Below, piece after piece: positions 3,422 to 40,505 of a DNA stretch of 64,000 nucleotides (within the stretch, counting starts at the first letter, position 1; each line of letters opens with the position of its first letter). Source of the stretch: a bacterium. Its GTDB lineage: Bacteria > Omnitrophota > Gorgyraeia > Zapsychrales > Zapsychraceae. The notes beneath the pieces are model-generated. The model did not search any database. It was not told the origin of the DNA and saw only the letters and a list, made by a program, of their open reading frames with translations. A program made the translations under genes and the position numbers. The stretch lies in NCBI GenBank assembly GCA_030429765.1, contig JAUIER010000003.1, forward strand, positions 16,402-80,401. The letters run 5' to 3'.

Positions 3422-6400
3422 GTGTTGTGTAAACGGCGCATGTCCGCAAATCCAAAATACATTTCTGCCTTCATTAAGTGCCTGGCCGCGGGGATTCTCT
3501 ATGCGGGAATCTCGACGGGGGGTGCAGTTCTCGCCCAGGAATTACCGGATGATCCTACATTCAAAGAGCGTAAAGCCGAAGAAGGTTACACACTTGATCT
3601 GAAAACGCTGATCAATAAATCCAAGAAACGCATCGAACAAGTTGAAGATAAGCTCAAAGAGCAGGCCAAAGAACGCCGCAATGAACGGCGTGAGGCCAAG
3701 GCGCGTGAGTACTATGAGAAAGCCCAACGTCTGTACGATGAGGGCAAATTTGATGAAGCCGTCGAACTTTGGGAGAAGGCTATCCGTATCACAGAGCATG
3801 ATGAGATGGAGGGGTATGTCCACAAGAGTGTGAGCCGTCAGCGGAAGAAGGACAAGGCGCTGAAGAAAGAAGAACAGCGCCGGCTGAAGCGACTGGAGGT
3901 CGAACGCGGGTATTCAGCCAAAGAGGTCGACAAGAAATATCGGGAGGCGGTCGAACTGTACAAAGATAAAGATTTTCTCGCCTCGAAGGTGGTTTTTGAA
4001 GAGGTCAACAAAATGTTCCCGGACCATCGCGCCACCCGCAGTTATATCGCGCTCATTGATCGACACATTGAAAAGGAACAGCGCGGAATGATCGAATCAA
4101 AGCTCAACAGTCCGGAGATGTCGTCGGCCAAGGCCAAGGCCCGCTGGAAAGAAGAGCTCAAAGAACGCGAACGCCAGCGTGAAAATGAACGCCGCGAACA
4201 GGCCGATGCGCTGTATGAAGAAGGCATCCGGCTGTACAAGAGCAAACAATACGAAAAGGCCAAGGAAAAATTCAAGGAAGTCGAATGGGTTCTGCCGGAC
4301 TACAAGCGGACGCTGCGCTATCTGTCCAAGATTGACAAAGATATCGAAAAGCACGGCGTGCGCTTTACCGAAGAGGATAAACTTCGCTATTTCAAGAATC
4401 AGGTCCGGGAAGGCAAATTGTCACCAGCCGAACAGGCCCAGGCTGAACGTAATCGAGTGGTCCAAGCGCGTGGATTTACCGATGAACGCCGGCGCAAAGA
4501 AGAGGCCGAGTTTGTCTATGATGCCGCGGAAACACTGTACAGGAAAAAATACTACAAACAGGCCCTCGAGAAATTTTATGAAGTCCGTTCGATTTATCCT
4601 GGATACAAGAAGACGGACCGTTTTATCAAGAAGCTGCACAAACGGTTGCCCGACGAGGCGGACAAACATGAAGTGGTCCAGCAGTCCTCTAGTCCGGATT
4701 ACGATGAAATGTACAAAGCTCCGCAGGGGACCAATGAGACCGCCCGCAAGGCCATCGCCAATCATCAGAACGGATTGGTCGCTCAGGCCGAAGAAAAATA
4801 CCAGCAGGCGGTTATGTTTTATAACAAGAAAAACTTTACCGAGGCGCAGCGAAAATTTATAGCGGTTGAGGCAATCATTCCAGGGTACAAGGCCACCCGC
4901 GAGCACCTCGCCCGGATCGACGGCGATATTGCGCGTCACCGCGGCCATACGTCAACCAAAACTGAAAAATCTGTAGCGTCAGCCAAACGCTCCCTATCAC
5001 CTCGTCAGGAGGAGACGGTCAAAGATAAATATCGTCAGGCCCGACGGCTCTACAAAGACAGGAATTATCAGGCCGCCAAAGACTTATTCGTCGAGATCAA
5101 TAAACTAAGTCCGGGGTACCGTTCGACTATGAAATATATTTCCCGATCGAACCGTAAACTCGAGCAGGAAAAAGCGGAGCGTGACAAACTCAAAGGCAAT
5201 GTTGGGGAAATGACCGTTGCGGCGGCGCCGGCAAGCACCATAACAGCCGGGAATTTGGGAACTCAGCGTAATTTGGGACTGGACGAGTACGAACGATTCA
5301 AACAGGCGGCCTATGCCGGTGAGGAATATCAACCAATGATGGGTGCAACCGAATTAGAACAGGTCGAGGCGCAAGCCGTGGAAGTGATTGAGGCTGTAAC
5401 GGCTGATCCCAAGCTCCTGGAAGAATATGATCCGTCCGATGCCAAGTTGTCCCGCGATGACAAGCGTCAGCTTGAGAAGCAGCAGGAGATGGTCCAGAAG
5501 GAAGTATCGCAGCAACAGAAAGATACCAAGCATCAAATGAAGCATATTATCGGCGATACGTATGACGAAGCGCGTGAGCTCTATCAGAAGGAAGAGTGGG
5601 CCGAAGCCAAGATCCGGTTTGAAACGGTGGAACGGTTGAGTCCCGGCTACCGACGGGCAAAATCGTATATCAAGCGAATCAATCGGAAGATCATGGAGCG
5701 GCAGGCCGTACCGGAGATCAAGGTGACAACCGCCGATGGAAAGCCTATTCCTGTGGTGGCGGATGTGACATTGGAAGATATTCAAAAGGCCCGTGAGGCC
5801 GAGCAAGTGGTCAGTCAGGAAGAGCTTCATCGTTCCGCACATCGCGTGGCCAAGCAAATGCAGGAGGAACAGAAACGGTTCGCTGCTTTGGCGGATCAAG
5901 CCATTCATCATTCCATGGAGGATACGGAGGAGGCCCGTAAGCAACGCGAGGCGGCCGCTGAAAAGACCAAGCGCGAACTCAAGGAGTCAATGCGGCTGCT
6001 GGAGTATGAGGCCGAGCAGCGGGAAAAAGCGGCCATGGAGGCACAACAGGCGGTCAATAAATCGTCGCGTCAAAGCCGTCGAGATTTAGATAAACTTCGT
6101 GATGACATGAAAGACGAAATGAAACAGGCGAATCGCGAGACCCTTAGGCGAATGGAAGATATGGTGGCCACCACATATGACGAAGCCAAGGATTTATTTA
6201 AGGAAAAAAGATACACGGCGGCGAAGCTTAAGTTTGAAACCGTCCAGCGACTGCATCCTGGTTACCGTCGGGTGGAATCGTATCTCAAGCGGGTTGATAA
6301 CAAGATACGTACCAATCAGGATTACACTGCCGATATGCCCAAAGATGTGTCGCAGGATCTGCTGCGATTGAAGAAACAAAAAATACGGCTCAAGGCCGAA

Positions 6401-7681
6401 GATGATGCCTATGCGGTCGCACGTGTTCGAAATAATGATTTGGAGAATGTATTGATGACGCGTAAGGAGTACACCAAGCGCGTGAGCGAATTGCATGCCA
6501 TTGATGAGGAACAAAAACGGTTGGCCGGTGAGCGTCGGATGAAACGGTTGGAACAGGAGCGCCTGTTAAAGTTGGAAGAAAAGCTGGCGTTTGAGCGGGC
6601 GCTAAAGGAAAAAGAAGCCAAGATTCGACGCAAGCAAGAAATGGACGAGCAGGAGAAAGAGGAGATTCGCCGGGCTAAACGGCGTGAGCATGACGAGCGG
6701 TTACGCGAGGCGCGTGAGCATCAGGAACGCATGGAACGCAAGTATCGCGAGGACCTCAAGCGGATTCGTAAATACGCGCTGAAACGATACCGCGACAACG
6801 ATATGATCGAGGCTCAGGCATTGACCGGACGTTATGAAGACTTGTTGGCCAAGGCCAATTTCTCCGAGCGCGAGCGGATCAAGATGCGGCAGCAATTCAG
6901 CCGCGAAAAGAAAAAGATCCTCAAGGAATACGACCGGGATCGCTACGAGGCCGAACGGATTTTGTATGAAGGTACTAGATATCAGGCCGCCGAGGCACCG
7001 ACAGCATCCGACGCAAATAAGATTCAGCTGACCCGTTCCAAGGAGTTAGAAGAGTTAGAGGCCAAGATTCGCGAAGAAGAGCGCAAACTGCAGCGGGCCC
7101 GTGAAGAAGAGGAAAAGCGTCGCCAGGAAATGGCAGAAGTACGGGCGCAGTTGACGCCTGATCTCGCGCCTCCAACAATCTCAGAGTCTAAAACCGCTTC
7201 TTTGAGCAAGGCATTCCCGGCGGATGTAGACCGCTATGTGGAAATTCGCGAGGAACGGAATCGAAAACGCGGGATGAAAATCGAAGAGATCCAGGAGCAA
7301 AAACGTAAAGAGATTGAATCCGTCGTCAAATCCCGCCAGGCGGAATTGCGTAAAAAACGCGAAGAGGTCCAGGAGGAGTTTGATAAGAATATCAAGAAGC
7401 TGTACAAAAAGGCGGTAAGGCTTTACAAAAAGAAAAATCTGCAGGAAGCTGAGATCATTTTTGAAGAGATCCAGATAATGAAGCCGGAGTATAAAAAGAC
7501 GGAAAAGTACCTGACGAAGATCCGTAAAAAGATCAAAAAATCGGATCAAACGGTGAAGGCTCAACCGGTTGAAACCGGATTCCGTGAAACCACGTCAATT
7601 CCACTGGAGCCCATCGGCGGCTCCTCCCGTCAAGATGCTGTGACAAGCGCCTTGGACGCCTTTGAACGCCAGATGTGGTAG
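3422..7681 (+). CDS. Secreted, highly charged (K/E/R-rich) repeat protein of 1419 aa with at least 9 TPR-like 'LY..K.Y..A...F..V....PGY.....YI..I...I' units
   Basis: The start is GTG at 3422, or alternatively ATG at 3440. The N-terminal signal peptide is MSANPKYISAFIKCLAAGILYAGISTGGAVLAQE. Repeats include LYEEGIRLYKSKQYEKAKEKFKEVEWVLPDYKRTLRYL, LYKDRNYQAAKDLFVEINKLSPGYRSTMKYI, LYQKEEWAEAKIRFETVERLSPGYRRAKSYI and LFKEKRYTAAKLKFETVQRLHPGYRRVESYL. Charged coiled-coil-like linkers lie between them. Only 33 nt separate this gene from the upstream one. Confidence 0.55.
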   Translation: MLCKRRMSANPKYISAFIKCLAAGILYAGISTGGAVLAQELPDDPTFKERKAEEGYTLDLKTLINKSKKRIEQVEDKLKEQAKERRNERREAKAREYYEKAQRLYDEGKFDEAVELWEKAIRITEHDEMEGYVHKSVSRQRKKDKALKKEEQRRLKRLEVERGYSAKEVDKKYREAVELYKDKDFLASKVVFEEVNKMFPDHRATRSYIALIDRHIEKEQRGMIESKLNSPEMSSAKAKARWKEELKERERQRENERREQADALYEEGIRLYKSKQYEKAKEKFKEVEWVLPDYKRTLRYLSKIDKDIEKHGVRFTEEDKLRYFKNQVREGKLSPAEQAQAERNRVVQARGFTDERRRKEEAEFVYDAAETLYRKKYYKQALEKFYEVRSIYPGYKKTDRFIKKLHKRLPDEADKHEVVQQSSSPDYDEMYKAPQGTNETARKAIANHQNGLVAQAEEKYQQAVMFYNKKNFTEAQRKFIAVEAIIPGYKATREHLARIDGDIARHRGHTSTKTEKSVASAKRSLSPRQEETVKDKYRQARRLYKDRNYQAAKDLFVEINKLSPGYRSTMKYISRSNRKLEQEKAERDKLKGNVGEMTVAAAPASTITAGNLGTQRNLGLDEYERFKQAAYAGEEYQPMMGATELEQVEAQAVEVIEAVTADPKLLEEYDPSDAKLSRDDKRQLEKQQEMVQKEVSQQQKDTKHQMKHIIGDTYDEARELYQKEEWAEAKIRFETVERLSPGYRRAKSYIKRINRKIMERQAVPEIKVTTADGKPIPVVADVTLEDIQKAREAEQVVSQEELHRSAHRVAKQMQEEQKRFAALADQAIHHSMEDTEEARKQREAAAEKTKRELKESMRLLEYEAEQREKAAMEAQQAVNKSSRQSRRDLDKLRDDMKDEMKQANRETLRRMEDMVATTYDEAKDLFKEKRYTAAKLKFETVQRLHPGYRRVESYLKRVDNKIRTNQDYTADMPKDVSQDLLRLKKQKIRLKAEDDAYAVARVRNNDLENVLMTRKEYTKRVSELHAIDEEQKRLAGERRMKRLEQERLLKLEEKLAFERALKEKEAKIRRKQEMDEQEKEEIRRAKRREHDERLREAREHQERMERKYREDLKRIRKYALKRYRDNDMIEAQALTGRYEDLLAKANFSERERIKMRQQFSREKKKILKEYDRDRYEAERILYEGTRYQAAEAPTASDANKIQLTRSKELEELEAKIREEERKLQRAREEEEKRRQEMAEVRAQLTPDLAPPTISESKTASLSKAFPADVDRYVEIREERNRKRGMKIEEIQEQKRKEIESVVKSRQAELRKKREEVQEEFDKNIKKLYKKAVRLYKKKNLQEAEIIFEEIQIMKPEYKKTEKYLTKIRKKIKKSDQTVKAQPVETGFRETTSIPLEPIGGSSRQDAVTSALDAFERQMW
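3700..7545 (+). repeat. Dispersed intragenic repeats (~45 codons each, at least 9 copies) encoding TPR-like helix pairs ending in a P-G-Y motif
   Basis: The protein-level consensus A..LY.....Y..A...F..V....PGY.....Y...I...I recurs along the 3422..7681 product. It follows the TPR consensus positions (L/W4, Y/L8, A11, A20, F24, P32). Confidence 0.6.
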
Positions 7682-10011: not shown

Positions 10012-11823
10012 ATGAAATTTATCAAGGTACTACTCATCATTATTCTGGTGCTCATCGTTCTGATGGGCGTTGGTGCTTTTATTTTTATCAAGACATTTGA
10101 CGCGAATCAGTATAAAGACAAGATCACCCAGGAAATGACCAAGGCCCTTAACCGGCCGGTCAATATGGACCGAATCGACCTGAAGATGTCGGCCGCCAGC
10201 GGGGTTTCGCTTGAGGTTGTTAATCTGGATATCAAGGATATGCTGGAGGTTGAGTCAACCTACCTAGCTGTTGACTTGATGCAGTACGCCAAGAATCGGA
10301 AGATTGTTATTCCGAAGGCGATCGTCAAGTCACCCAAGATCACCTTTGTTCAGGCCGGAACCGGAGCCTCCGGGGCGGCGGGTAGCGGGTCGACGTCTGC
10401 ATCTGGGGCTTCAACGAGCGGTGTCCAGGAAATCCCTGAAGTTTCAATTGAGACCATCCGGATCGAGAACGGGACATTGCACTATCGGGACATCACACAG
10501 GCCAAGCCTGTTGACATCAAGATTCAGCAGCTGGATGTGGAGATCAAGGATGTCGCATTGGATAAGCCGTTTCCGTATAAGGTCGCGCTTGCCGTTTTTT
10601 CTGATCAGCAGCAAACGGTGAAGCTGGACGGATTGGCTACATATTTGTCTAAGAGCGGAGAGATACGTGTTCAAGATCTGAAGGTGGATGTGCTGCTTGG
10701 AAAGATGTCATTGGCGCAAATTCTTCAGGCCGCGCCCGACCTGGCCGGATCAGGGCTTCAATCGATTGACGGCGGGACATTGATTCTTAATCTCAAAGAG
10801 CTGCTGCTAAAATCGGACGGACAATTAGGTGATGTCTCGGCCGACGGTCAGCTTAAGGATCTCAAGCTTCGGGTTGAACAGCTTCCGGGGCCGGTTGCGA
10901 TGGATGCCGATTTTCAGATGACAGGAACGGATGTGCGCATCGGACAGGCTGTGGTCAAACTAGCCGACGGCGAAGTCAAGCTGTCGGGGAATTTAACCGA
11001 TGTCATGCAGTCGATGGGATATGATCTGAAGCTGACGATCAATCAAGTGGACGTTACCAAGTTGATGGATCAATCAGAATTGCCGGTCAAGATTGCCGGA
11101 TCGGCTCAGGGGCAATTTGATGTCACCGGGCAGGGGATTGATGAAGCGGCGATCCGCTCAAATCTCTCCGGGGCTGGGCAATTTCGGATCGCGGACGGCC
11201 GGATCAAGGACAAGAATTTGCTGGGGATCGTGGTCAATCAGCTGGCCTGGTTTCCGGATTTTTCGAATCGCTTTAAATCGAACCTTTCGCCCAAGTATCA
11301 GGAGCGGATCAAGGCGGACGATACGGTGCTCAATGACGTGTCCGCGGATGTTCAAATCGCGGCCGGGCAGATCCAACTCAAGAATGTTCAGCTTGATGCG
11401 GATGGCTTCGTCTACAGCGCGTCCGGCCGGATGGACTTTGATCAAAATCTGAATCTGAAGTCTTCATTCAGTTTTGATCAGGAGCTTAGTGATACAATGC
11501 TCAAAATGCAGGGTGAACTATCGGCCTTATTGGACAATTCCCGGCGCGTGAATTTTCCGTTCAAAGATTATCAAGGCAAAGCGGATAAATACGTGCCGAG
11601 ACCGGACACCAAAGAGCTGTTTAAGCAGGGCGTGGCGAACCGCGGTAAGGCGGAACTCAAGAAAGTTTTGTTTAAGGCATTAGACATGGAAGAACAATCG
11701 GCGCCCAAGGTCGAAGGCACTTTGAACACGGGCGTTGAAAGTAATTTATCAGAACCCAAAGAAGTTAGTACAGAAGAAGTTCTGATCGATAATGTCCTTG
11801 ACGCTATTCCGTTATTTAAGTAG
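10012..11823 (+). CDS. AsmA-family outer-membrane biogenesis protein
   Basis: N-terminal TM helix MKFIKVLLIIILVLIVLMGVGAFIFI followed by KTFDANQYKDKITQEMTKALNRPVNMDRIDLKM, which is typical of the AsmA N-terminus. The long beta-rich remainder also fits. Confidence 0.7.
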   Translation: MKFIKVLLIIILVLIVLMGVGAFIFIKTFDANQYKDKITQEMTKALNRPVNMDRIDLKMSAASGVSLEVVNLDIKDMLEVESTYLAVDLMQYAKNRKIVIPKAIVKSPKITFVQAGTGASGAAGSGSTSASGASTSGVQEIPEVSIETIRIENGTLHYRDITQAKPVDIKIQQLDVEIKDVALDKPFPYKVALAVFSDQQQTVKLDGLATYLSKSGEIRVQDLKVDVLLGKMSLAQILQAAPDLAGSGLQSIDGGTLILNLKELLLKSDGQLGDVSADGQLKDLKLRVEQLPGPVAMDADFQMTGTDVRIGQAVVKLADGEVKLSGNLTDVMQSMGYDLKLTINQVDVTKLMDQSELPVKIAGSAQGQFDVTGQGIDEAAIRSNLSGAGQFRIADGRIKDKNLLGIVVNQLAWFPDFSNRFKSNLSPKYQERIKADDTVLNDVSADVQIAAGQIQLKNVQLDADGFVYSASGRMDFDQNLNLKSSFSFDQELSDTMLKMQGELSALLDNSRRVNFPFKDYQGKADKYVPRPDTKELFKQGVANRGKAELKKVLFKALDMEEQSAPKVEGTLNTGVESNLSEPKEVSTEEVLIDNVLDAIPLFK

Positions 11824-11877
11824 GTTTTAAGGCAGTTTGGACTTTTTCGCATCACGTTGGAATTATTTGAAATTCTC

Positions 11878-11905
11878 TTGTTATAATTTGAAATTCAACT
11901 ATAAT
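11878..11905 (+). promoter_or_regulatory. Sigma70-like promoter candidate (TTGTTA - 16 nt - TATAAT) in the AT-rich gap upstream of the PilZ gene
   Basis: ttgtta at 11878..11883, a 16-nt spacer, tataat at 11900..11905. The predicted TSS is ~30 nt upstream of ATG 11942. Confidence 0.35.
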
Positions 11906-11941
11906 AAAAATCAGTTAATCAAAAACGGTTGAAAAAAACAT

Positions 11942-13699
11942 ATGGTCAATAAATCCGATATCATTTATAACGAAGCACGAAACAATTTACGAGTTAAAGA
12001 ATCACGAAGCGTTTTGTGGCGAGTGAACGATGGAGACATCAAAGGTAAAGGTCAAATCCGTAACATTTCAACCACCGGCATGCTGCTCGAGACCAACTCG
12101 AATTTTGTTCCTACCGAAGGCTGCCGATTTTCATTTGATTCCGCACTAGGACACGATAATTTTATCCCGCAAAATGGAAAGCTGGTTTGGCACAAACGCA
12201 AGCCGTTCTCCAAGAATAAATATCTTTGCGGGATTCGCTTTGTTGAACCCGGCGAGTATGTGCTGACCAAGCTTCGACAGCGCGTTCAAAAGGGTATCAA
12301 GCATATTGCCAACGCCCGCCGCATGCGCAAAGTTGTCAATTTTATGATGATCATCGGTATGATCGCCATGACCGCGTATGTACTCTGGGAAGCCAGTCAT
12401 GTCTACCAAAATATGAATACCACCAACCGCCGCATGCTGGATGCCTCGCAGCAACAGGCCCTGTTGACACAGAGCTTTTCCAGCCGATTGGATGTCAGTG
12501 AAATGCAGCTGGCCAGTGTCACGGAAGAGTTGGATGCCACACGTACCTTATATAGGGAAAGCCAGGGGCTGCTTGGGGAGGTTCGCGTAGAATTGGAGCT
12601 GACCAAGGCCGTTTTGGCGGATACCGAATCATTGCTTGAACAAACCAAGACGGATCTTGTCGGAGTTCAAGGTGAGCTGTCAACCACTCAATCTGATCTT
12701 GCCGCCCGAACCAAAGAATTGGAAGGCGTTAAAGAAGAATTACTTGGTGCACAAACCAATTTGGCCGGCGTTAGTGCCGGACGTGATGAGCTGGCGGCCA
12801 AAATTAAGGCGTTGGAAGAATCGAACACCGGGGCCAAGGCTGATTTTGAAAACACCATTCAGCTGCTTGAGCTCAAGAATCTTCAGCTGAACGAAGAGAT
12901 GGCCAAGCTTCAGCAGAAAATCACCGACATCACCGCCGCGAATGTGGCCGCTGCCACGACGAGCGGTACCGTTGAGTCCCGCAATATCGCGTTGACACAA
13001 GAGATAGAAACTCTCAAGTCGCAGTTAGCGGCTGTATCTGAAAGTCAAACCGTCGGTGCTGATCAGAAAATCATCCAGCTGAACGAACAAATCGACAGTC
13101 TCAAGGCGCAATTGGTGACCGCGAACAATCAGAATGCCAACCTCAAAGAAGTCCGCATAGACAATCAAAAGTTGAACGACGATATCATCCGGCTCAAGAA
13201 AATGCTTTTGGCGGTCTCGGAAAGTAAAGTGGCGGGCGCCGAGGCCAAGATGGCCGAGTTGAATACAGAGATCGACGGGCTCAAGGGTGAATTGGCAGCA
13301 TTGTCAGCCGATAATGTTCTCACCAAAGAGCAAGGACAAAATTTAATCAAGACCTATCGTCAGGAAATGGCCAAGGTCAAAGATAAGCTCAAACATTTCC
13401 GCGCCGAGGCCAAGAAAGTCCGTGAGGACGCCTTGATCGAGCGTGACCGAATTCAAATGTCGCTGGGCAACCAGGGATACTTCATGAAAAACGGTAAGGC
13501 CGTCCAAGTGGACTACGCCAAGTATGAGAATGTCGGCTTAAATGAAGTCCGCCAAAATCAGGAGATCGAAGCGGTGGCCATCAATGTTCCGGAGGTGGGA
13601 GCCACATCCGCGACACCGGCCGTCGAGCCGACACCGGCGAGTGTAGACAAGCCAATCGACAATCGTCAGTTTGAAATTGACGTCACGTTTGTCGAATAA
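11942..13699 (+). CDS. PilZ-domain (c-di-GMP binding) membrane-anchored coiled-coil protein
   Basis: The N-terminus carries the PilZ motifs RNNLR (RxxxR) and NISTTG (D/NxSxxG). A TM segment MMIIGMIAMTAYVLW follows. Next is a ~350-aa heptad-rich coiled coil with an internal duplication (LAAVSESQTVGADQKIIQLNEQIDSLKAQL / LLAVSESKVAGAEAKMAELNTEIDGLKGEL). Confidence 0.55.
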   Translation: MVNKSDIIYNEARNNLRVKESRSVLWRVNDGDIKGKGQIRNISTTGMLLETNSNFVPTEGCRFSFDSALGHDNFIPQNGKLVWHKRKPFSKNKYLCGIRFVEPGEYVLTKLRQRVQKGIKHIANARRMRKVVNFMMIIGMIAMTAYVLWEASHVYQNMNTTNRRMLDASQQQALLTQSFSSRLDVSEMQLASVTEELDATRTLYRESQGLLGEVRVELELTKAVLADTESLLEQTKTDLVGVQGELSTTQSDLAARTKELEGVKEELLGAQTNLAGVSAGRDELAAKIKALEESNTGAKADFENTIQLLELKNLQLNEEMAKLQQKITDITAANVAAATTSGTVESRNIALTQEIETLKSQLAAVSESQTVGADQKIIQLNEQIDSLKAQLVTANNQNANLKEVRIDNQKLNDDIIRLKKMLLAVSESKVAGAEAKMAELNTEIDGLKGELAALSADNVLTKEQGQNLIKTYRQEMAKVKDKLKHFRAEAKKVREDALIERDRIQMSLGNQGYFMKNGKAVQVDYAKYENVGLNEVRQNQEIEAVAINVPEVGATSATPAVEPTPASVDKPIDNRQFEIDVTFVE

Positions 13700-13731: not shown

Positions 13732-14508
13732 GTGATCAAACGTTCCAAGAAAATTACACGAACGGATCAGATTTTTTCTTCTCAATCAGTCAAGTTACCC
13801 TATGTACTTGTGCGCTCAAATGCCCGGCGGACATCAACGATTATGGTGGACGAACAGGCCAAGGTCAGCGTCTATGTTCCTTATAAGGCGTCGCAAGTAT
13901 ATGTAGATGCTTTTATCCGTGAGAAGATCAACTGGATTGAGAAATGCGTGGCCAATGCCCGCCAGAATCAACGGATCATCGAGCAGAAAAAGTTTGATCA
14001 CGGCGGGAAATTCTGGTTTCTCGGTAAAAAGTATCCGATTCATGTCAAAGCTGATAATCTGAAACGCGCGGTGATCCATTTTGATGGACTAGGCTGGACG
14101 GTTCGGGTCCCGCCCGATATCGAGGATGAACGCCGTGAGGAGATGATTCGGGACAAGCTGGTCAAGTGGTACCGTCAGCAGGCCGAAGAGATCCTTGGAG
14201 GCCGGATCTTTCATTATTCACGAGTGATCGGTGTTGAGCCTAAAAAGATTGCCGTCCGCAGCCAGAAACGGATGTGGGGATGCTGCGACTATACGCGGCA
14301 GGTCATCCACCTCAATTGGCAGATTGTCCTGACGCCCATCCGGGTGATTGACTATGTGGTGGTCCACGAGTTATGCCATTTGATTCATCCCAATCACAGC
14401 AAGCGGTTTTGGAATAAGGTGGGGTCGGTGATGCCTGAATATCAGGAATATCGGGATTGGTTGCGACGTAATCAGACCGAACTGATGCTGCCGATGGCCA
14501 GGACATGA
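13732..14508 (+). CDS. YgjP-like metal-dependent hydrolase (DUF45, zinc HExxH WLM/SprT-like)
   Basis: VVVHELCHLIHPNHSKRFWNKV motif. The start may instead be ATG at 13846. Confidence 0.7.
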   Translation: MIKRSKKITRTDQIFSSQSVKLPYVLVRSNARRTSTIMVDEQAKVSVYVPYKASQVYVDAFIREKINWIEKCVANARQNQRIIEQKKFDHGGKFWFLGKKYPIHVKADNLKRAVIHFDGLGWTVRVPPDIEDERREEMIRDKLVKWYRQQAEEILGGRIFHYSRVIGVEPKKIAVRSQKRMWGCCDYTRQVIHLNWQIVLTPIRVIDYVVVHELCHLIHPNHSKRFWNKVGSVMPEYQEYRDWLRRNQTELMLPMART

Positions 14509-14726
14509 AGATTTACGTTCGGGTGATCCCCCAGGCCAAACGTGCCCAGATTCGCCAGGAAGACACGGGGTTGAAGGTGTATCTGACAGCCCCCGCGGTC
14601 GACGGCAAGGCGAATAAGGCGCTTCTGGCTGTATTGGCCGATTTCTACGGGGTGCGAAAAAGCCGGATTCAGATCATAAAGGGATTGAAATCACGGGACA
14701 AAACAATTATGATAGAAGGCATTTGA
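14505..14726 (+). CDS. DUF167 / YggU-family small protein
   Basis: MKIYVRVIPQAKRAQI...DGKANKALLAVLADFYGVRKSRIQIIKGLKSRDKTIMIEG. A 4-nt ATGA overlap with the upstream gene. Confidence 0.75.
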   Translation: MKIYVRVIPQAKRAQIRQEDTGLKVYLTAPAVDGKANKALLAVLADFYGVRKSRIQIIKGLKSRDKTIMIEGI

Positions 14727-14780
14727 AGCGGACCAGAGGCCTCCCAGGCCCGAATCGGTCCCAAAAAGCCTGGAGACAAC

Positions 14781-15230
14781 ATGTTACAAGAGCAAATCAA
14801 CAAAGATTATATCACCGCCATGAAGGCGCGGGATTCCGTGAAATCATCAACCTTGAACTTTTTACGTGCGCAGTTGAAGAACGTGAGCATCGAGCAGCAG
14901 ACCGAGAAACTCTCGGACGATGCGGTGATCGCAGTATTAAAAAAGCAGATCAAACAGCGTCAGGATTCTATTGAGCAATTCAAACAGGCCGGACGGACCG
15001 AGCTTGTCGACAAAGAATCGGCCGAATTGGCGGTGTTGCAGGAGTATTTACCCGAGCAGATGTCCGCCGAACAGATTGAGGTTATTGTCAAGGATGCCGT
15101 GGCTGAACTACAGGCGAGTTCGATGAAAGATATGGGTCGCGTGATGAAAGCGGTCGGTGAGAAGACCGGGGGCAATGCCGACAACAAGGTCGTCAGCGAA
15201 GTGGTTAAGAAGATCTTAATGAACCAGTAG
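14781..15230 (+). CDS. GatB/YqeY domain protein
   Basis: KDYITAMKARDSVKSSTLNFLRAQLKN ... LQEYLPEQMSAEQIEVIVKDAV ... DMGRVMKAVGEKTGGNADNKVVSEVVKKIL. Confidence 0.8.
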   Translation: MLQEQINKDYITAMKARDSVKSSTLNFLRAQLKNVSIEQQTEKLSDDAVIAVLKKQIKQRQDSIEQFKQAGRTELVDKESAELAVLQEYLPEQMSAEQIEVIVKDAVAELQASSMKDMGRVMKAVGEKTGGNADNKVVSEVVKKILMNQ

Positions 15231-15239
15231 GCGTAGCAG

Positions 15240-16049
15240 ATGACAAAGACAAAGGATAGTAAGCGGCCGCATGTTGTTATGCGGCTTGTTATCGTATTAG
15301 GACTGGTGATCGGACTGGGGATGAGCTTTTGGCTGATCTGGATTGATCAGCATCGAATTGTGCCGATCGTGATGTATCATCATATAGATGAGCTGGATCA
15401 TCATGCGGTGGCCACGATACCCGCCGACCGGTTTGAAAAACATTTACAGTATCTCAAAGATCACCGATTTGATGTGCTTTCGATGGATGAACTGGTACAG
15501 GCCAAACGATCCGGACAGCGGATATCCCGAAAGACGGTCGCGTTAACTTTTGACGACGGATACGTTGACAATTATGAACAGGCGTATCCGTTGCTCAAGC
15601 GTTATGGATTTCCTGCCACGATGTTTATCAGTTCGGATCTCGTCGGAAAGCCCGGCTATATCAGCTGGGATCAGGCCCGTGAAATGCAGAATAACGGTAT
15701 CACCTTCGGCAGCCATACGCGCCGGCATATTTATTTACCGGACGCGGACCGTGAAGAGCAGTTAGACGAAATTGTGAACAGCCGCAAGATTTTGGAACGC
15801 GAGCTCGGGATGCCGGTCAAACATTTTTCATATCCCGTCGGCGGCTTTAATCACGAAATCAAGCAGATGGTTAAAGTGGCAGGATACCAAAGCGCGGTGT
15901 CGACCAATCGGGGATATGATCGATATAACGAGGACGTGTTTGAATTTAACCGCGTCACGATCGATGAGACCGACAATTTCGGTGCGATCCGCTGGGCTAA
16001 ATTTTCAGGGTATTACAATCTATTCCGCACACCCAAGAATCCAGAATAA
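15240..16049 (+). CDS. Polysaccharide deacetylase (NodB-homology / CE4) with an N-terminal TM anchor
   Basis: TFDDGYVDNYEQAYPLLKRYGFPATMFI ... GSHTRRHIYL. TM segment VVMRLVIVLGLVIGLGMSFWLIWI. Confidence 0.8.
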   Translation: MTKTKDSKRPHVVMRLVIVLGLVIGLGMSFWLIWIDQHRIVPIVMYHHIDELDHHAVATIPADRFEKHLQYLKDHRFDVLSMDELVQAKRSGQRISRKTVALTFDDGYVDNYEQAYPLLKRYGFPATMFISSDLVGKPGYISWDQAREMQNNGITFGSHTRRHIYLPDADREEQLDEIVNSRKILERELGMPVKHFSYPVGGFNHEIKQMVKVAGYQSAVSTNRGYDRYNEDVFEFNRVTIDETDNFGAIRWAKFSGYYNLFRTPKNPE

Positions 16050-16070
16050 ATTATAGAGAAGGATATTTTC

Positions 16071-19000
16071 ATGACAAAATCAGCAGTCAAGTACTCCATT
16101 AATAGCAACGGCTATTTCGTAATAGAAGATTATAACCGATCCAAAGTTTTCAGTAGTTTCTTTCCGGGCGTTGCCGGGCTTTGGGGGATTCCGATGTGGG
16201 TGTTTTATGTGAACAGAGGTCAGGGGATAGCCAGTTTCGGTATTCAGTCCAAGGACAAGGCGATCATGGAATTTCAGCCCGCCAACAAATCCTACCGGCT
16301 CACAACCCTTCAAGGGTTTCGCACATTTATCAAGGTCAAACAAGGACAGAAAACCACCTACTGGGAGCCCTTCCAGAATAATTTTGATGGGACAGACTTT
16401 AAGAAAAAACAGAATATGTATATATCGGCGCATGATCTGATCCTGGAAGAAGTCAATCAGGATTTGGGGTTGACGGTCCGGGTCAATTATTTCACATTGC
16501 CGGACGAGCCGTATTCCGCGCTGATGCGGCGTGTTTCCGTCGAGAATACAAGCGGTAAGAAGTGTTCTATCGAGATCCTGGACGGTATGCCGGCGATTGT
16601 GCCGTTCGGACTCAAAGATTGGCTAATCAAAAATCTGGCCCGTACGGTCGAGGCTTGGGTTAAGGTCCGTAATCTCGATGAGCGGGCGCCGTTCTATCAG
16701 CTGAATGTTGAGGTCGCGGATACGTCACAGGTCACGCACATTACGGAAGGCAATTTCTTCTTCAGCTTTGACGCCACGGCGTCGAAGAAGACTATGCTTC
16801 GGCCGATCGTCGAGGCGACGAAGATCTTCGGATCTAATCTGGATTTCAGCAGTCCCGAAAAATTTGTCAACAATACCTTCCAGCCGTCGTCCAAACAAAC
16901 GACCAACAATAAAACGCCATGCGCCTTCGCGCATCACACGTTCAGTCTGCCGGCAGGCAAGACGCATGAAATTGTTTCAGTCTTCGGTTACGCCCGGGAT
17001 GTGGATCAGCTCAAAGAGGTCCAGAAGCAGGTCGTTCAGGAAGGTTTTGTTCCGGCTAAAGAATCACAAAATCGTGAGATCATCGATGATATCAAAAACT
17101 ACGCGCAGACTAACAGCGCGTCGGAGAATTTCAATTTGTATGCCGGACATACATTTCTGGACAATATTCTACGCGGCGGTTTGCCGATTTCGGTGAGAAC
17201 GAGCGAAGGGAATATTGCCTTCAACGTATACAGCCGTAAACACGGCGATCTGGAACGCGATTATAATCATTTTGTCGTCGCGCCGACATTTTATTCTCAA
17301 GGCAACGGGAATTACCGCGATGTGAATCAGAACCGGCGGAATGATGTCTGGTTCAATGCTGACGTTAAGGAAAGTCACATCGTCAGTTTTCTTAACTTGT
17401 CACAGGCGGATGGATATAATCCATTGGTGGTGAAGGGAACGTCGTTCCGGGTCATGGAACGGAAGGACGCGGACCGGATCATTGATGAGTTTGTGGAGTC
17501 GGGCGACAAAGATCTATTGCGTGATTTTCTGATGAAGAACTTTCAGCCAGGTGAACTGCTGGTCTTCGTCGACGAGAATGACATCAAGATTCGTGAAAAC
17601 GTCCGCGTTTTTCTCGGAAGCGTTCTTGAGATCAGCCAAAAGCAGGAGATGGCGGATCACGGGGAAGGATTCTGGTCGGATCACTGGACATACAATCTGG
17701 ACTTGATTCAGAGTTATCTGTCATTGTACCCCGAGCGTCTGCGTGAACTGCTGATCGAAAACAACGAGTTCAGATTTTATCTGAATCACCATTATGTCCG
17801 GCCGCGAGATCAGCGATTTTACCTGACTGAACATGGGGTGCGTCAGTATGAATCGGTGTGTGATGACAGTAAAGACTTTGATCCGTCGAAGTTTAATTTT
17901 CGGCTCAAGACCCGCAGCGGACAAGGCGAGGAATACACCACAAACCTTTTATGCAAACTATTGTGTTTGATCGTCAATAAGGCGGCCAGTCTGGACCCCA
18001 GCGGATGCGGGGTGGAGATGGAGGCCGATAAACCCAATTGGTATGACGCGTTGAATGGCTTACCGGGTCTCGTCGGCTCGTCGGTGTCCGAGACATTTGA
18101 GCTGCAGCGATACAGTGCGTTCTTACTGGACGCCATCGATAAACTCGAGCTGAAGGACAAGGATGAGTTTCCAATCTTTGAAGAGCTGGCTTCGTTTATT
18201 ACGGGCGTCACGAATTTGTTGAGGGTCAATCATTCGGCTCTGGACTATTGGAACAAGTCCAATGATATCAAGGAAAACTATCGTCAGCGGGTCCGCCGTT
18301 TTATCGACGGGCGGGAAACCAAGATGACGGTCCATGAAATTCGCGCGTTCTTGGAGTTGGTGATCAAGAAAACCACGGAATCCTTAAAGATCGCGCGTAA
18401 CAAAAAGGGACAACTGGCCACATATTTCTATCATGAGGTTACAGACTACAAAAAAATCGAAGGTCAGCATAATGAAGAGCACACGCTGGTCCGTCCGCTG
18501 GCCTTTAAAAAGCATGCGCTGCCGTTGTTCCTCGAGGGCTATGTGCACGCCATGAAGATTCAAACCAGTGTCGCCGATGCCCGGAAGATGTACCGTGAAA
18601 TTCAAAAAAGCGATCTTTATGATGAAAAACTCAAGATGTACAAGGTGAACACAAATCTGGATTCGGAAACCGAGGAGATCGGACGCACACGGATATTCCC
18701 GTCGGGATGGCTGGAAAATGAATCGGTGTGGCTACACATGGAGTATAAGTTCATCCTTGAAATCCTGAGGGCTGAGCTGTTTGAAGAGTTTTACGACAAT
18801 TTCAAGAACGTGTTTGTACCGTTCCAAAAGCCGGCGCGTTATGGCCGAAGTATTTTAGAAAACTCATCGTTTATTGTCAGCAGCGCGCATGAGGACAAAG
18901 ATCTGCATGGACGCGGTTTTGTCGCCCGTCTGTCCGGTAGTACGGCTGAATTTCTGCATATCTGGCTGGTGATGAACGCGGGAGAGCGTCCATTTGCCTT

Positions 19001-19349
19001 GAACAAGGAGGGTGAGCTGGTACTTGAGTTTCAGCCGGCCCTGGCGAGTTGGCTGTTTACGACCAAAGCCACAACCGTTGATTTTGCAGATATTCATCAA
19101 AATCGTTATACCTGGAAACTGCCAAAAAGTTCGTACGCCTTCAAGTTTCTGAACTCCACGCTCGTGGTCTACCATAATCCCAAGCGGAAGAATACATTCG
19201 GTAAGGACAAAGCGGTAGTCCAGCGTGTTGAGATTCTGTTTGATTCGCAGGAGGCCCCGGTGGTGGTTGATGCGGCGCAGATTCCGTCACAGTACGCCCG
19301 TCAGATCCGTGATCAAAAGGCCATACGAATCGATGTTCATCTGGGCTAA
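16071..19349 (+). CDS. Large cytosolic (alpha/alpha)6-barrel glycoside hydrolase/phosphorylase-like protein (GH94/cellobiose-phosphorylase-like signature; family uncertain)
   Basis: 1092 aa with no signal peptide. It carries a PNWYDALNGLPG motif resembling the catalytic DWND(A/G)LN box of GH94 phosphorylases. Its size and predicted secondary structure also fit. Family assignment would need an HMM search. Confidence 0.35.
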   Translation: MTKSAVKYSINSNGYFVIEDYNRSKVFSSFFPGVAGLWGIPMWVFYVNRGQGIASFGIQSKDKAIMEFQPANKSYRLTTLQGFRTFIKVKQGQKTTYWEPFQNNFDGTDFKKKQNMYISAHDLILEEVNQDLGLTVRVNYFTLPDEPYSALMRRVSVENTSGKKCSIEILDGMPAIVPFGLKDWLIKNLARTVEAWVKVRNLDERAPFYQLNVEVADTSQVTHITEGNFFFSFDATASKKTMLRPIVEATKIFGSNLDFSSPEKFVNNTFQPSSKQTTNNKTPCAFAHHTFSLPAGKTHEIVSVFGYARDVDQLKEVQKQVVQEGFVPAKESQNREIIDDIKNYAQTNSASENFNLYAGHTFLDNILRGGLPISVRTSEGNIAFNVYSRKHGDLERDYNHFVVAPTFYSQGNGNYRDVNQNRRNDVWFNADVKESHIVSFLNLSQADGYNPLVVKGTSFRVMERKDADRIIDEFVESGDKDLLRDFLMKNFQPGELLVFVDENDIKIRENVRVFLGSVLEISQKQEMADHGEGFWSDHWTYNLDLIQSYLSLYPERLRELLIENNEFRFYLNHHYVRPRDQRFYLTEHGVRQYESVCDDSKDFDPSKFNFRLKTRSGQGEEYTTNLLCKLLCLIVNKAASLDPSGCGVEMEADKPNWYDALNGLPGLVGSSVSETFELQRYSAFLLDAIDKLELKDKDEFPIFEELASFITGVTNLLRVNHSALDYWNKSNDIKENYRQRVRRFIDGRETKMTVHEIRAFLELVIKKTTESLKIARNKKGQLATYFYHEVTDYKKIEGQHNEEHTLVRPLAFKKHALPLFLEGYVHAMKIQTSVADARKMYREIQKSDLYDEKLKMYKVNTNLDSETEEIGRTRIFPSGWLENESVWLHMEYKFILEILRAELFEEFYDNFKNVFVPFQKPARYGRSILENSSFIVSSAHEDKDLHGRGFVARLSGSTAEFLHIWLVMNAGERPFALNKEGELVLEFQPALASWLFTTKATTVDFADIHQNRYTWKLPKSSYAFKFLNSTLVVYHNPKRKNTFGKDKAVVQRVEILFDSQEAPVVVDAAQIPSQYARQIRDQKAIRIDVHLG

Positions 19350-26865: not shown

Positions 26866-27036
26866 TCTGAAACGAGTGATCAGTGATCGGTAACGCGAGT
26901 ATTGCTGGATACCAAGTTCAGGGGCGGTAGGACAAAGGGCTGATATATCAGCGTGTCCTGCCAAGATGAGTCAACCATCCGGGTGTCGCGTGTCACATCA
27001 CCGGTCTCTCTCCCAAAAAACTGTAAGTCATTCATC

Positions 27037-27948: not shown

Positions 27949-28541
27949 TGCCGGTTATGAAACATTTTTGTAAACACACAATTTGGATGGGCTGGGTATG
28001 TCTGCTTCCTAGTCTTGTCAATGCTCAGGAGGAGGGCGGATTGCGTGACATCCGCGGGCCGGTGGAATATCCGTCGTTTCCGTGGGGATCTTTTATCACC
28101 ACGCTGGTGCTCTTGTTGCTGATCGGCGGCGGATTATACTTTTATCTCGAGCGTAAGCGACGCCTCAAGGCCAAGTCCCAAGTCGCCAAGTTGCCGTGGC
28201 AGATTGCTCAGGAAAAAATCAAGGCCTTGCTGGCTTCAGACTTGTTGTCGAGCAAACAGTACGAAACATTCTACGCGCGGTTATCAGATGTCTTACGCGA
28301 ATATATCGAAAATCGTTTTGGAATCCGCGCGGTTGAGATGACGACGGACGAATTCCTGACATCTCTAAAGGACAATCAGTCTCTCGCTGACAATCACAAG
28401 CGTCTGCTGAAGCAGTTTCTCGAATATGCGGATATGGTGAAGTTTGCTAAATTCACGCCGAATCAGAAAGATGTCGAAGAAGGTTATGAAGCGGCCCGTA
28501 AGTTTATCACTCAGACGCAGCGTCGATCCGGAGGGGCGTAA
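27948..28541 (+). CDS. DUF4381-like single-pass membrane protein of the Bat operon
   Basis: Signal/TM region plus ITTLVLLLLIGGGLYFYLERKRRLK, followed by a helical domain. The position between the DUF58 and vWA genes fits this family. Confidence 0.6.
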   Translation: MPVMKHFCKHTIWMGWVCLLPSLVNAQEEGGLRDIRGPVEYPSFPWGSFITTLVLLLLIGGGLYFYLERKRRLKAKSQVAKLPWQIAQEKIKALLASDLLSSKQYETFYARLSDVLREYIENRFGIRAVEMTTDEFLTSLKDNQSLADNHKRLLKQFLEYADMVKFAKFTPNQKDVEEGYEAARKFITQTQRRSGGA

Positions 28542-29533: not shown

Positions 29534-29534
29534 A

Positions 29535-31702: not shown

Positions 31703-31706
31703 GCCG

Positions 31707-40457: not shown

Positions 40458-40505
40458 ATCACGGAACACTTTAAGATTTAATATTTGACGAAAGGATAAA
40501 GAATC

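Follow-up and report, generated by a model that had tools for sequence, protein, structure and literature searches.

The gene at 11942..13699 (+) of the window, as we call the whole 64-kb stretch of DNA analyzed here, encodes a 585-aa protein which, with somewhat better than even probability, is best explained as a bitopic inner-membrane protein that would relay an internal c-di-GMP signal through its transmembrane (TM) helix to a periplasmic stalk and tip. The protein is a member of an unnamed family that is nearly restricted to Omnitrophota, and profile and alignment comparisons indicate that the defining part of this family is an undescribed C-terminal module, not the PilZ domain; judged from gene order, the gene is part of a syntenic core kept across the phylum. 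The open reading frame begins with ATG, and its product is identical in sequence to P0001 of a public protein collection.

Omnitrophota are ultra-small, often host-attached bacteria that form a poorly understood phylum. To our knowledge, PilZ domains have been described as acting on cytoplasmic targets or on glycosyltransferases, either fused to them or as partners. In the window protein, a helix predicted to be continuous would connect an intact PilZ domain with a long periplasmic stalk and an unannotated, strongly conserved tip.

An N-terminal PilZ domain retaining both ligand-binding motifs

The initial annotation had recognized PilZ motifs near the N-terminus, and both were located, RxxxR as R13-N-N-L-R17 (11978-11992, +) and NxSxxG as N41-I-S-T-T-G46 (12062-12079, +), with 23 intervening residues. 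The Pfam search suggested there as a check assigned aa 13-113 (11978..12280, +) to PF07238 above the curated gathering cut-off (30.0 versus 22.5 bits, E 6.9e-7), the alignment spanning profile positions 3-98 of 102, and the domain was also matched in 17/17 close relatives (best E 2e-8). At 30 bits, the PilZ score of the window protein is modest. AlphaFold2 predicted a beta-barrel with six strands between aa 23 and 100, followed by a helix from residue 104 (pLDDT 70-83), and in a Foldseek comparison of this predicted N-terminal fold the 16 top-ranked matches were solved PilZ domains, with PP4397, BcsA, YcgR and VCA0042 coming first at probability 1.00 (E <= 0.001 for the best one only); the PilZ domain of Alg44 was among the matches. 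Searching PDB sequences with a profile of the family's PilZ region retrieved no solved PilZ domain at E <= 0.01, the best matches being PilZ proteins at E 0.09-0.3, so that it is the Pfam HMM, together with the motifs and the fold, that supports PilZ membership.

The PilZ reading had also been staked on conservation of the R and N motifs in orthologues, which was found almost throughout: RxxxR...[DN]xSxxG occurs in 95 of the 97 full-length PilZ forms, with the identical 23-residue spacing in 86 of those 95. Such consistent retention of both ligand motifs at a fixed spacing indicates selection for binding, and PilZ fusion proteins invariably retain their binding motifs (bioRxiv 10.1101/814665). 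The domain thus appears to be of the canonical, ligand-competent type, and it probably binds c-di-GMP. The residue preceding RxxxR is Ala, which would predict 1:1 binding and not an intercalated dimer. PilZ genes and GGDEF domains are already reported from Omnitrophota (bioRxiv 10.1101/2023.11.21.568195), the PilZ genes including small ones downstream of giant genes; the window gene is not one of these.

A predicted continuous helix from the PilZ domain into the membrane

The PilZ C-terminal helix and juxtamembrane linker (aa 104-130; 12251..12331, +), delimited by alignment and AlphaFold2, contain a conserved LRxRVQxGI motif and a K/R-rich stretch, with R112, R114, V115, Q116 and G118 invariant in alignment A1. 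AlphaFold2 models a single helix from residue 104 to 249 that passes through the TM segment, with pLDDT 73-89 over residues 111-160. The single TM helix proposed to follow the PilZ domain corresponds to the only strongly hydrophobic 19-residue window of the protein (aa 131-149, Kyte-Doolittle 1.95), from which, together with the positive-inside rule, a TM helix of aa 131-151 (12332..12394, +) with N-in/C-out orientation was assigned. The position of this hydrophobic segment is conserved in the family. K+R residues near the TM helix number 4.27 on the N-side versus 1.31 on the C-side, and the N-side excess recurs in 91/97 PilZ forms and 32/37 PilZ-less forms; by the positive-inside rule, the PilZ domain is predicted to be cytoplasmic and the coiled coil extracytoplasmic.

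A conserved C-terminal tip defines the family

Profile and alignment place the family-defining C-terminal module at aa 472-524 (13355..13513, +), where a conserved helix (VKDKLKHFR..A..REDAL.ERDR) is followed by LGNQGYFMKNGKAVQVD. The hairpin motif takes the form (L)GN(N/Q)G(Y/F)xxxxG, with G, N, G, G and V invariant in 84 sequences, and the tip consensus as a whole comprises the helix, LGNNGYfxKxGkxVxVD, a variable linker and a terminal xIDVxFVx strand. In the window protein, the linker corresponds to a variable tail (aa 525-576; 13514..13669, +) made of a short KY..GL segment and a low-complexity A/P/T/V-rich stretch, which is very variable in length among orthologues and has a pLDDT of about 60, and the extreme C-terminus is formed by the beta-strand-like motif FEIDVTFVE (13670..13696, +). 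An AlphaFold2 monomer of the tip, built with 84 sequences, gave a helix and a minimal hairpin with a mean pLDDT of 79. Three C-terminal tips searched against Pfam at E <= 10 matched no family, the tip profile gave only a chance-level match of 14.6 bits among PDB sequences, and Foldseek comparison of the tip model with the PDB returned nothing below E = 2.5. Within the 64-kb window there is no second copy of the tip or PilZ motifs except for a chance motif pair inside the GH161 gene described below.

The profile of this module scored 132.8 bits (E 4.9e-34) on the window protein and recovered 180 cluster representatives among 1.84 billion proteins; the genome matches were nearly all from Omnitrophota. 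Only two architectures occurred among the profile matches, namely PilZ-TM-coiled coil-tip and TM-coiled coil-tip, and the window protein has the N-in single TM helix followed by a heptad stalk of 150-360 residues that characterizes the family. The PilZ-less forms are homologous to the PilZ forms from TM to tip (hhalign probability 100%, E 2.3e-38). Orthologues of this kind, from another clade, occupy the same syntenic slot 5′ of the YgjP-like gene and have only about 10 cytoplasmic residues. Their presence at the same position indicates that TM, stalk and tip constitute the core, to which PilZ is an added cytoplasmic input, and suggests that the core works without c-di-GMP; these same-slot orthologues also offer a natural with/without comparison for c-di-GMP control.

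Conservation in the family is strongest in the periplasmic tip. FtsB, FtsL and DivIC are bitopic proteins in which an N-in single TM helix is followed by a coiled coil in the periplasm and a short segment at the C-terminus; in FtsB, this segment binds its partner by beta-strand addition. The window protein resembles them in layout, and they suggest a way in which the xIDVxFVx terminus might act; on the other hand, there is no sequence relationship, the window stalk is 4-10 times longer and division genes are absent from its context. By this analogy, our guess is that beta-strand addition is the most likely way for the tip to dock, the partner being periplasmic, peptidoglycan-associated or in the outer membrane.

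A coiled-coil stalk lengthened in the lineage of the window

Between the TM helix and the tip extends an extracytoplasmic coiled-coil stalk (aa 152-507; 12395..13462, +), supported by heptad analysis, AlphaFold2 and alignment. It contains 0 Pro and 0 Cys, and its hydrophobic enrichment at heptad positions a and d is 0.506 versus 0.261 ± 0.024 in shuffles (z = 10), in agreement with the coiled coil of about 350 aa described in the initial annotation. AlphaFold2 predicts helix from residue 104 to 507 with three short breaks; the full-length monomer has a pTM of 0.24 and is uninformative on the arrangement of the stalk. Islands of the stalk are common to the PilZ-less orthologues, comprising a juxtamembrane YQn..tN, LELTKAVLADTESLL (about aa 217-232) and ENTIQLLELKNLQL (about aa 302-315).

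Stalk length is narrowly distributed in most of the family, with a median of 191 residues overall, an interquartile range (IQR) of 178-199 in PilZ forms and a median of 163 in PilZ-less forms. The clade of the window departs from this by stepwise growth to 228, 262, 299 and 359 residues, the last being the length in the window's own lineage and the longest in the family. Estimated as straight stalks, 191 residues correspond to about 28 nm and 359 residues to about 53 nm; the typical stalk would thus fit a periplasm, whereas the 359-residue stalk would not. As the latter also shows five shifts of heptad register after residue 311, it is questionable whether this stalk could serve as a simple rigid rod for transmission.

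The stalk contains a 124-aa insertion (aa 325-448; 12914..13285, +) that the alignment reveals only in the window protein and P0002. A faint PF24161/CCDC39 match in P0002 is coiled-coil noise. Self-comparison identified a duplication of unit A (aa 348-403; 12983..13150, +), which contains sub-repeats, and unit B (aa 408-463; 13163..13330, +), which lies exactly 180 nt 3′ of unit A. The two units are identical at 24/56 residues, with a BLOSUM62 local score of 106 versus 28.4 ± 5.8 in shuffles (z = 13), and at the DNA level 12983-13150 is 53.6% identical to the sequence displaced by +180 nt, compared with 23.8 ± 3.3% at other offsets (z = 8.9). The tandem duplication claimed earlier from the DNA is therefore real, with a correction of 5-7 nt to its second interval: 13020-13110 pairs with 13200-13290, not with 13207-13295. 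Because the end of unit B overlaps the family-conserved segment GELAALSADNV, unit A looks like the derived copy. The alignment shows the internal duplication as an elaboration specific to this lineage and located within the 124-aa insertion.

A conserved gene neighborhood

The gene had been placed between AsmA and a YgjP/YggU/YqeY set, and Pfam confirmed all four neighbors. An AsmA-family gene lies upstream (10012..11823, +) and adjoins in most, though not all, orthologous loci. Downstream, on the same strand, follow genes for a YgjP-like zincin (13732-14508), YggU/DUF167 (14505-14726), YqeY (14781-15230), a membrane-anchored PgaB/IcaB-like deacetylase (15240-16049) and a cytoplasmic, catabolic GH161-type phosphorylase (16071-19349). 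With gaps of -4 to 54 nt and a conserved order, the genes in 13732..19349 (+) are likely co-transcribed; a terminator search between them gave no convincing candidate and one weak one, with 3 G-C pairs, at 15978-15996 inside the deacetylase gene.

Writing X for the gene under study, the array (DUF255)-AsmA-X-YgjP-YggU-YqeY-deacetylase-GH161 phosphorylase keeps its order in almost all related loci, even at 32-35% protein identity. The most persistent link is that between X and the YgjP-like gene, which X directly precedes in the window, in 19/20 PilZ-form loci and in 2/2 PilZ-less loci, even where the other neighbors change. Since synteny extends over more than 15 kb phylum-wide, the neighbors are weak evidence for functional partnership. 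The genome encodes lipopolysaccharide (LPS) and outer-membrane functions (AsmA, LpxB, KdtA and an MsbA-like protein), which makes it reasonable to read the gene as an envelope element, and an envelope role for the PilZ-TM-coiled-coil protein is suggested.

Proposed inside-out signaling and its alternatives

In the model that we favor, the C-terminal helix of the PilZ domain would run unbroken into the TM helix and on into the extracytoplasmic coiled-coil stalk, which would end in the conserved tip of helix, GNNGY beta-hairpin, flexible linker and terminal beta-strand. TM helix, stalk and tip would be the ancestral functional core, an envelope protein that is presumably oligomeric and that in most of the phylum carries a fused PilZ domain. 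Binding of c-di-GMP in the cytoplasm may alter how the juxtamembrane helices pack or the register in which they do so; through the rigid helix, this change would be passed on to the state of the stalk and tip, with signaling probably running in this direction. Such inside-out signaling would resemble that of LapD, in a PilZ-TM-periplasmic layout like that of Alg44 without its HlyD domain. In LapD, a c-di-GMP receptor domain in the cytoplasm is linked across the membrane to an output in the periplasm that acts on an envelope partner (PMC3032553). The likeness is one of concept, since LapD has a degenerate EAL domain, HAMP, two TM helices and a folded periplasmic domain, none of which the window protein has; Pfam found no degenerate GGDEF-EAL, HAMP or LapD/MoxY periplasmic domain in it. 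The cytoplasmic PilZ receptors, both stand-alone and fused (MapZ, YcgR/PlzD and the BcsA PilZ), share the domain, the motifs and the predicted fold; they act, however, on cytoplasmic targets or a fused glycosyltransferase, whereas the fusion partners of the window PilZ are a TM anchor and an extracytoplasmic stalk.

Should the inside-out model hold, the family would offer a simple system of one chain and one TM helix in which to study how the binding of a second messenger is transmitted mechanically across a membrane, and the study of envelope regulation in Omnitrophota would gain a first entry point. Otherwise, what remains is a family of conserved envelope proteins that deserves a Pfam entry. 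A bolder version, speculative and unlikely in its particulars, casts the protein as a phylum-specific, c-di-GMP-tunable trans-envelope strut, in which a coiled coil of periplasmic width in most lineages would dock its tip by beta-strand addition on an outer-membrane or bridge-like lipid-transport partner, for which the adjacent AsmA is the obvious candidate, and c-di-GMP would set envelope spacing, outer-membrane contact or lipid flow. If so, the stepwise lengthening of the stalk in the window's lineage would track a change of envelope geometry, and the PilZ output mechanism would lack a described precedent.

Alternatively, the output could be cytoplasmic and not periplasmic. The protein would then be a c-di-GMP-dependent recruitment hub at the membrane, whose stalk only positions it, for example at envelope contact sites, and whose loaded PilZ domain recruits a partner from the cytoplasm, such as the YgjP-like zincin, or releases it. 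The X-YgjP adjacency and the strong conservation of the LRxRVQxGI linker favor this unlikely reading, and PilZ C-terminal helices are known protein-interaction surfaces (bioRxiv 10.1101/814665). Nevertheless, the PilZ-less orthologues, with their residual cytoplasmic tail, keep the YgjP adjacency, which is therefore independent of PilZ, and the concentration of conservation in the periplasmic tip favors a function outside.

Quite unlikely is an Alg44-like co-polymerase or periplasmic adaptor, that is, a c-di-GMP-activated subunit of an exopolysaccharide synthesis or export machine whose coiled coil bridges to the outer membrane while the PgaB/IcaB-like deacetylase modifies the polymer. Alg44, the Pseudomonas alginate co-polymerase, has an N-terminal PilZ domain, a TM helix and a periplasmic HlyD-like domain, and its PilZ C-terminal helix mediates dimerization (bioRxiv 10.1101/814665). 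The two proteins share a canonical N-terminal PilZ domain that carries RxxxR and D/NxSxxG and whose C-terminal helix leads into one TM helix, a helical periplasmic region and, presumably, the sensing of c-di-GMP inside for a function outside; moreover, the membrane-anchored polysaccharide deacetylase is conserved four genes downstream, and one PilZ-less locus, the only such case, has a GT2 glycosyltransferase directly upstream. Against this, the periplasmic part of the window protein consists of a long heptad stalk and a small, unrelated tip, and HlyD, membrane-fusion or lipoyl domains were detected in 0/17 members: HlyD-family Pfam models gave no match at E <= 1 in the window protein or at E <= 0.01 in 17 relatives, and in place of a HlyD, lipoyl or beta-barrel domain after the TM helix AlphaFold2 gives only helix and the minimal hairpin. 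No partner synthase gene is adjacent, and no synthase-type glycosyltransferase, export porin or tetratricopeptide repeat (TPR) scaffold adjoins the gene in the window or in most loci. The Alg8-like glycosyltransferase and export linkage is absent, the neighbors being DUF255, AsmA, the housekeeping-type YgjP, YggU and YqeY in between, the deacetylase and, as the large neighbor, a phosphorylase that is cytoplasmic and catabolic. The window family, unlike Alg44, is almost confined to Omnitrophota and has PilZ-less orthologues.

A purely structural tether or spacer, an Lpp-like periplasmic ruler with a PilZ domain that is vestigial or purely dimerizing and unresponsive to c-di-GMP, would account for the narrow, near-periplasmic length of the typical stalk and for orthologues that function without PilZ. 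It is very unlikely, as both ligand-binding motifs are almost universally retained at fixed spacing, the stepwise growth of the stalk is odd for a ruler, and a stalk that far exceeds the family median argues against a rigid one.

A cytoplasmic SMC-like or cytoskeletal coiled-coil protein, whose hydrophobic segment would not be a true TM helix, can be dismissed as highly improbable. It is hinted at by weak NCBIfam matches to SMC, Rad50 and ASRP models and by the JGI name "chromosome segregation ATPase" of the PilZ-less member P0107, but these NCBIfam matches score 25-28 bits at cut-offs of 300-730 and cover only coiled coil, an ATPase head is absent, the PDB matches are generic zippers such as GCN4 and myosin, and the hydrophobic segment is conserved in position and has a strong positive-inside bias. 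An SMC/Rad50-like identity was accordingly rejected, the sub-threshold NCBIfam matches to SMC, Rad50 and HmpF being coiled-coil noise; the full-length PilZ-less profile likewise matched only generic leucine zippers in the PDB.

A conserved promoter in the upstream gap

The 118-nt gap preceding the gene (11824-11941) has 29% GC versus about 50% around it, and the strong promoter-like character attributed to this AT-rich gap was borne out by pattern search and orthologue comparison, which delimited a conserved promoter block at 11857..11905 (+). The promoter consists of a -35 element TTGTTA (11878-11883), a 16-nt spacer and a -10 element TATAAT (11900-11905), which would place the start of transcription about 7 nt beyond 11905, and the pattern CTTGTNA-N15-17-TATAMT occurs once in the 64-kb window and in none of 100 shuffles. 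The block is nearly invariant in the window and in the related loci L031, L010, L001 and L003 while its flanks diverge, and CTTGTCA...TATAMT is also found 5′ of distant orthologues. In the inside-out model, this strong, conserved sigma-70-type promoter would drive the gene as the first cistron of the array of YgjP, YggU, YqeY, deacetylase and GH161 phosphorylase. Rfam searches returned only 3 tRNAs and no riboswitch or leader RNA family in the window, and no leader RNA family in 10 related loci; the stability of leader folds was not above that of shuffles. A second, overlapping candidate promoter combines TTGGAA (11857-11862) with an extended -10 element TGTTATAAT (11879-11887), and a 21-nt unit, TTGnnAT(T/A)ATTTGAAATTC, is present in two tandem copies in the promoter block.

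The PilZ domain and its c-di-GMP-binding motifs

The PilZ stalk protein (585 aa, ORF 11942-13699 on the + strand, ATG start) carries the existing annotation 'PilZ domain-containing protein' and nothing more. Our initial annotation had assigned it an N-terminal PilZ domain with RNNLR and NISTTG motifs, and the Pfam search agreed: PF07238 matched aa 13-113 with 30.0 bits, over the gathering score of 22.5, and both c-di-GMP-binding motifs were present (R13NNLR17 and N41ISTTG46). These residues are also kept in orthologues, RxxxR followed by [DN]xSxxG being found in 95 of 97 full-length PilZ forms, with a spacing of exactly 23 residues in 86; the two forms lacking the pair look truncated or misclassified. 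A family PilZ profile gave no significant match among PDB sequences, the best matches being PilZ proteins (E 0.09-0.3). In the model the N-terminal domain forms a beta-barrel with a C-terminal helix, and its best-ranked 16 structural matches were solved PilZ domains (PP4397, BcsA, YcgR, VCA0042), with Alg44 ranked lower. According to Galperin and Chou (bioRxiv 10.1101/814665), a PilZ domain that is part of a fusion protein invariably keeps its binding capacity, and its C-terminal helix mediates interactions, Alg44 dimerisation among them; GGDEF domains and PilZ genes have been reported for Omnitrophota (bioRxiv 10.1101/2023.11.21.568195). We infer that the PilZ domain of the stalk protein binds c-di-GMP.

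Membrane topology and architecture of the stalk

Hydropathy analysis revealed one TM-grade segment, aa 131-151 (KD19 maximum 1.95), matching the single TM helix expected after the PilZ domain. K+R in the 15 flanking residues was 4.27 on the N-side versus 1.31 on the C-side, with N exceeding C in 91 of 97 PilZ forms and in 32 of 37 PilZ-less forms (orthologues comprising TM helix, stalk and tip alone), which places PilZ inside and the stalk outside; PilZ must be inside the cell to meet c-di-GMP. The LPS pathway genes within the window, LpxB (35458-36603, - strand), an MsbA-like ABC exporter (37486-39414) and a Kdo transferase (60224-61486), support a diderm envelope, and AsmA is encoded there too; 'outside' for the stalk is therefore the periplasm.

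Stalk residues 152-507 contain no proline and no cysteine, and hydrophobic enrichment at heptad positions a/d is 0.506 versus 0.261 +/- 0.024 in shuffles (z = 10). AlphaFold2 predicted a helix over 104-507 with three short breaks, so that the coiled coil of ~350 aa originally proposed is upheld on both counts; in the model a single helix begins where the PilZ barrel ends (aa 104) and continues through the TM helix to residue 249 (pLDDT 73-89 at 111-160). Heptad register is continuous over 175-311 and then shifts five times, so the distal half is segmented and may fold back on itself.

The internal tandem duplication proved real at both levels, although the second DNA interval first assigned to it was 5-7 nt out of register. 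Residues 348-403 and 408-463 are identical at 24 of 56 positions (local score 106 versus 28 +/- 6 in shuffles), and the DNA copies, offset by exactly 180 nt, share 53.6% identity versus 23.8 +/- 3.3% at other offsets. Beneath it lie five sub-repeats of ~30 aa each, of (Q/K)LNxEIdxLK type. PilZ forms have a median of 191 residues (IQR 178-199) between the TM helix and the GNxGY motif, against 163 for PilZ-less forms; at the textbook helix rise of ~0.148 nm per residue, a typical stalk is ~24-28 nm, on the order of the Gram-negative periplasm. Stalk lengths in the window's clade step up through 228, 262, 299 and 359 residues, the longest of the whole family belonging to the PilZ stalk protein and its close relative P0002. 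A 124-aa insertion (aa 325-448) accounts for the added length and encloses the duplication, which is a recent elaboration and not a family feature. Because this long, segmented stalk departs from the family length, a rigid-ruler model is weakened for the window's lineage.

A conserved C-terminal module shared with PilZ-less forms

Searching 5.8 billion proteins with a word index yielded only 17 relatives, all PilZ-positive, the named ones coming from Omnitrophota MAGs. Four parts are conserved in their alignment: PilZ itself, an LRxRVQxGI linker, the TM helix together with stretches of the stalk, and a C-terminal module (the tip). The tip consists, in order, of a helix VKDKLxHFR..A..REDAL.ERDR, the segment LGNNGYFxKxGKxVxVD..KY, a low-complexity linker that varies between members, and xIDVTFVE at the terminus. 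The module matched no Pfam family at E <= 10 and nothing meaningful among PDB sequences, and its AlphaFold2 model (84 sequences, mean pLDDT 79), in which a long helix, a tight hairpin and some short helices are the sole elements, had no Foldseek match. The output module is hitherto undescribed.

Searching 1.84 billion cluster representatives with the module profile retrieved 180 proteins at E <= 1e-3, which by inspection fell into just two architectures: PilZ-TM(~131)-coiled coil-tip (97 full-length representatives, mostly 330-425 aa) and TM(~10)-coiled coil-tip without PilZ (~40 representatives, 210-270 aa). One outlier stands apart, a helicase-like protein of 1043 aa in which the motif GNLIKNGKG is repeated; it looks unrelated. 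The two forms align from TM helix to tip (hhalign probability 100%, E 2.3e-38, 193 columns), and PilZ-less genes occupy the same slot, directly 5' of YgjP and followed further on by YggU, YqeY and the 1090-aa gene; TM-stalk-tip is therefore the conserved core, and PilZ a cytoplasmic part gained or lost depending on lineage. In two PilZ-less loci (L028 9582-11525, L029 2648-6289), extra genes lie between YgjP and YggU, encoding a flavodoxin-like FMN reductase, unannotated ORFs and a stand-alone response-regulator receiver; where PilZ is missing, the receiver may provide regulatory input instead.

Distribution and gene neighbourhood

A locus scan taking one genome per GTDB species gave 19 loci, labelled Omnitrophota/Omnitrophica (14), Candidatus Zapsychrus exili (1), 'Planctomycetales' (3) and 'Lysobacterales' (1). 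The conserved array runs large TPR protein, DUF255 thioredoxin-like protein, AsmA, PilZ stalk gene, YgjP, YggU, YqeY, polysaccharide deacetylase, ~1090-aa protein and (large protein or MoxR), with AsmA upstream and YgjP, YggU and YqeY downstream as initially described. It persists where the PilZ stalk protein is only 32-35% identical, adjacency of the stalk gene to YgjP being the most persistent link; since the whole region is syntenic phylum-wide, the neighbours are weak functional evidence. The MAG contigs labelled 'uncultured Planctomycetales' (L014, L017, L025) and 'Lysobacterales' (L019) have this Omnitrophota-specific array, so their labels are probably wrong or the contigs misbinned.

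The deacetylase kept in the array (15240-16049) has an N-terminal membrane anchor and is closest, below threshold, to PgaB/IcaB N-deacetylase domains. The 1092-aa protein (16071-19349) is a GH161-type phosphorylase, closely homologous to solved GH161 phosphorylases (PDB 9qqk, E 2.7e-229), with a faint GH94 Pfam match and a partial match to a GH149 beta-1,3-glucan phosphorylase model; at 55-67% identity phylum-wide, it is more conserved than the PilZ stalk protein.

Promoter and probable operon

The AT-rich, promoter-like gap noted 5' of the gene was recovered as 118 nt of 29% GC, versus ~50% GC in the region, containing TTGTTA-16-TATAAT. A tighter pattern, CTTGTNA-N15-17-TATAMT, has a single match in the 64-kb window and none in 100 shuffles, and the -35/-10 pair, often preceded by AAATT, recurs 5' of the orthologous gene in at least 11 of 22 loci, distant ones included. 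Within the window's clade a promoter block of ~50 nt (TTGTAATTATTTGAAATTCnCTTGTTATAATTTGAAATTCAAyTATAAT) is almost invariant while flanks and 5' UTR diverge; it is near-invariant across five genomes with protein identities of just 60-73%. In the window the block (11857-11905) holds a 21-nt tandem repeat (TTGGAATTATTTGAAATTCTC / TTGTTATAATTTGAAATTCAA), interpretable either as a repeated operator or as a pair of overlapping promoters; read by eye, the block may include a second promoter that overlaps the first and has an extended -10 (TGTTATAAT).

No terminator-like site was found between the PilZ stalk gene and YgjP, and the downstream array has small intergenic gaps (-4 to 54 nt) and a lone weak terminator candidate (15978-15996), so the PilZ stalk gene probably heads an operon that extends to 19349. 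GC-rich hairpins followed by a U-run occur in L007 (~25-50 nt 5' of the start at 176) and L014 (~15-40 nt 5' of the start at 7026), and L024 also has a terminator-like hairpin 5' of 7095. Their placement between conserved promoter and start codon suggests a leader attenuator or small RNA in these distant loci; no Rfam match was found, and overall leader folds were no more stable than shuffles.

Proposed mechanism and relation to known systems

The observation is real and, to the extent that sequence analysis can show, the initial interpretation is supported; we class the protein as a putative PilZ receptor with a new, extracytoplasmic output. We propose oligomerisation and a helix relay as the most economical reading: the stalk would drive oligomerisation, c-di-GMP binding would alter how the PilZ domains and their C-terminal helices pack, the helix would convey this change into the periplasm, and the conserved tip would engage or release a partner. 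Beta-strand addition is how FtsB binds FtsQ, and the terminal xIDVxFVx, with alternating hydrophobics on a flexible linker, suggests by analogy that the tip could bind in this way. AsmA is an obvious candidate partner, though not adjacent in every genome.

Alg44 offers the closest known layout, but the PilZ stalk protein falls outside that class because it has no HlyD-type domain and its locus no partner synthase. LapD is closest in logic, yet all LapD domains are absent. Components and general logic are already familiar. Phylum-wide conservation, natural PilZ-less controls and one-helix transmembrane coupling make for a clean experimental target.

Other genes in the window

The presence of a prepilin (type IV leader) peptidase gene (54571-55632) shows that this genome encodes machinery of the type IV pilus or Tad-like kind; nothing linking it to the PilZ stalk protein was found. 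A complete Bat/MoxR-type 'aerotolerance' operon (25870-34285) encodes MoxR AAA+, DUF58, DUF4381, two BatA/BatB-like VWA proteins, a TPR protein, BatD and a further TPR protein, MoxR being 75-82% identical across related loci. Three tRNA genes in a row (42462-42831) lie directly 3' of an rpsB-tsf-pyrH-frr block (39612-42379). Large products include TPR-containing proteins of 1076 and 1419 aa (158-3388 and 3422-7681) and a 2077-aa protein (19503-25736) with methyltransferase, GNAT acetyltransferase and ABC1/kinase-like regions. Related loci have still larger genes nearby (> 2900 aa), which fits the giant genes reported for Omnitrophota.
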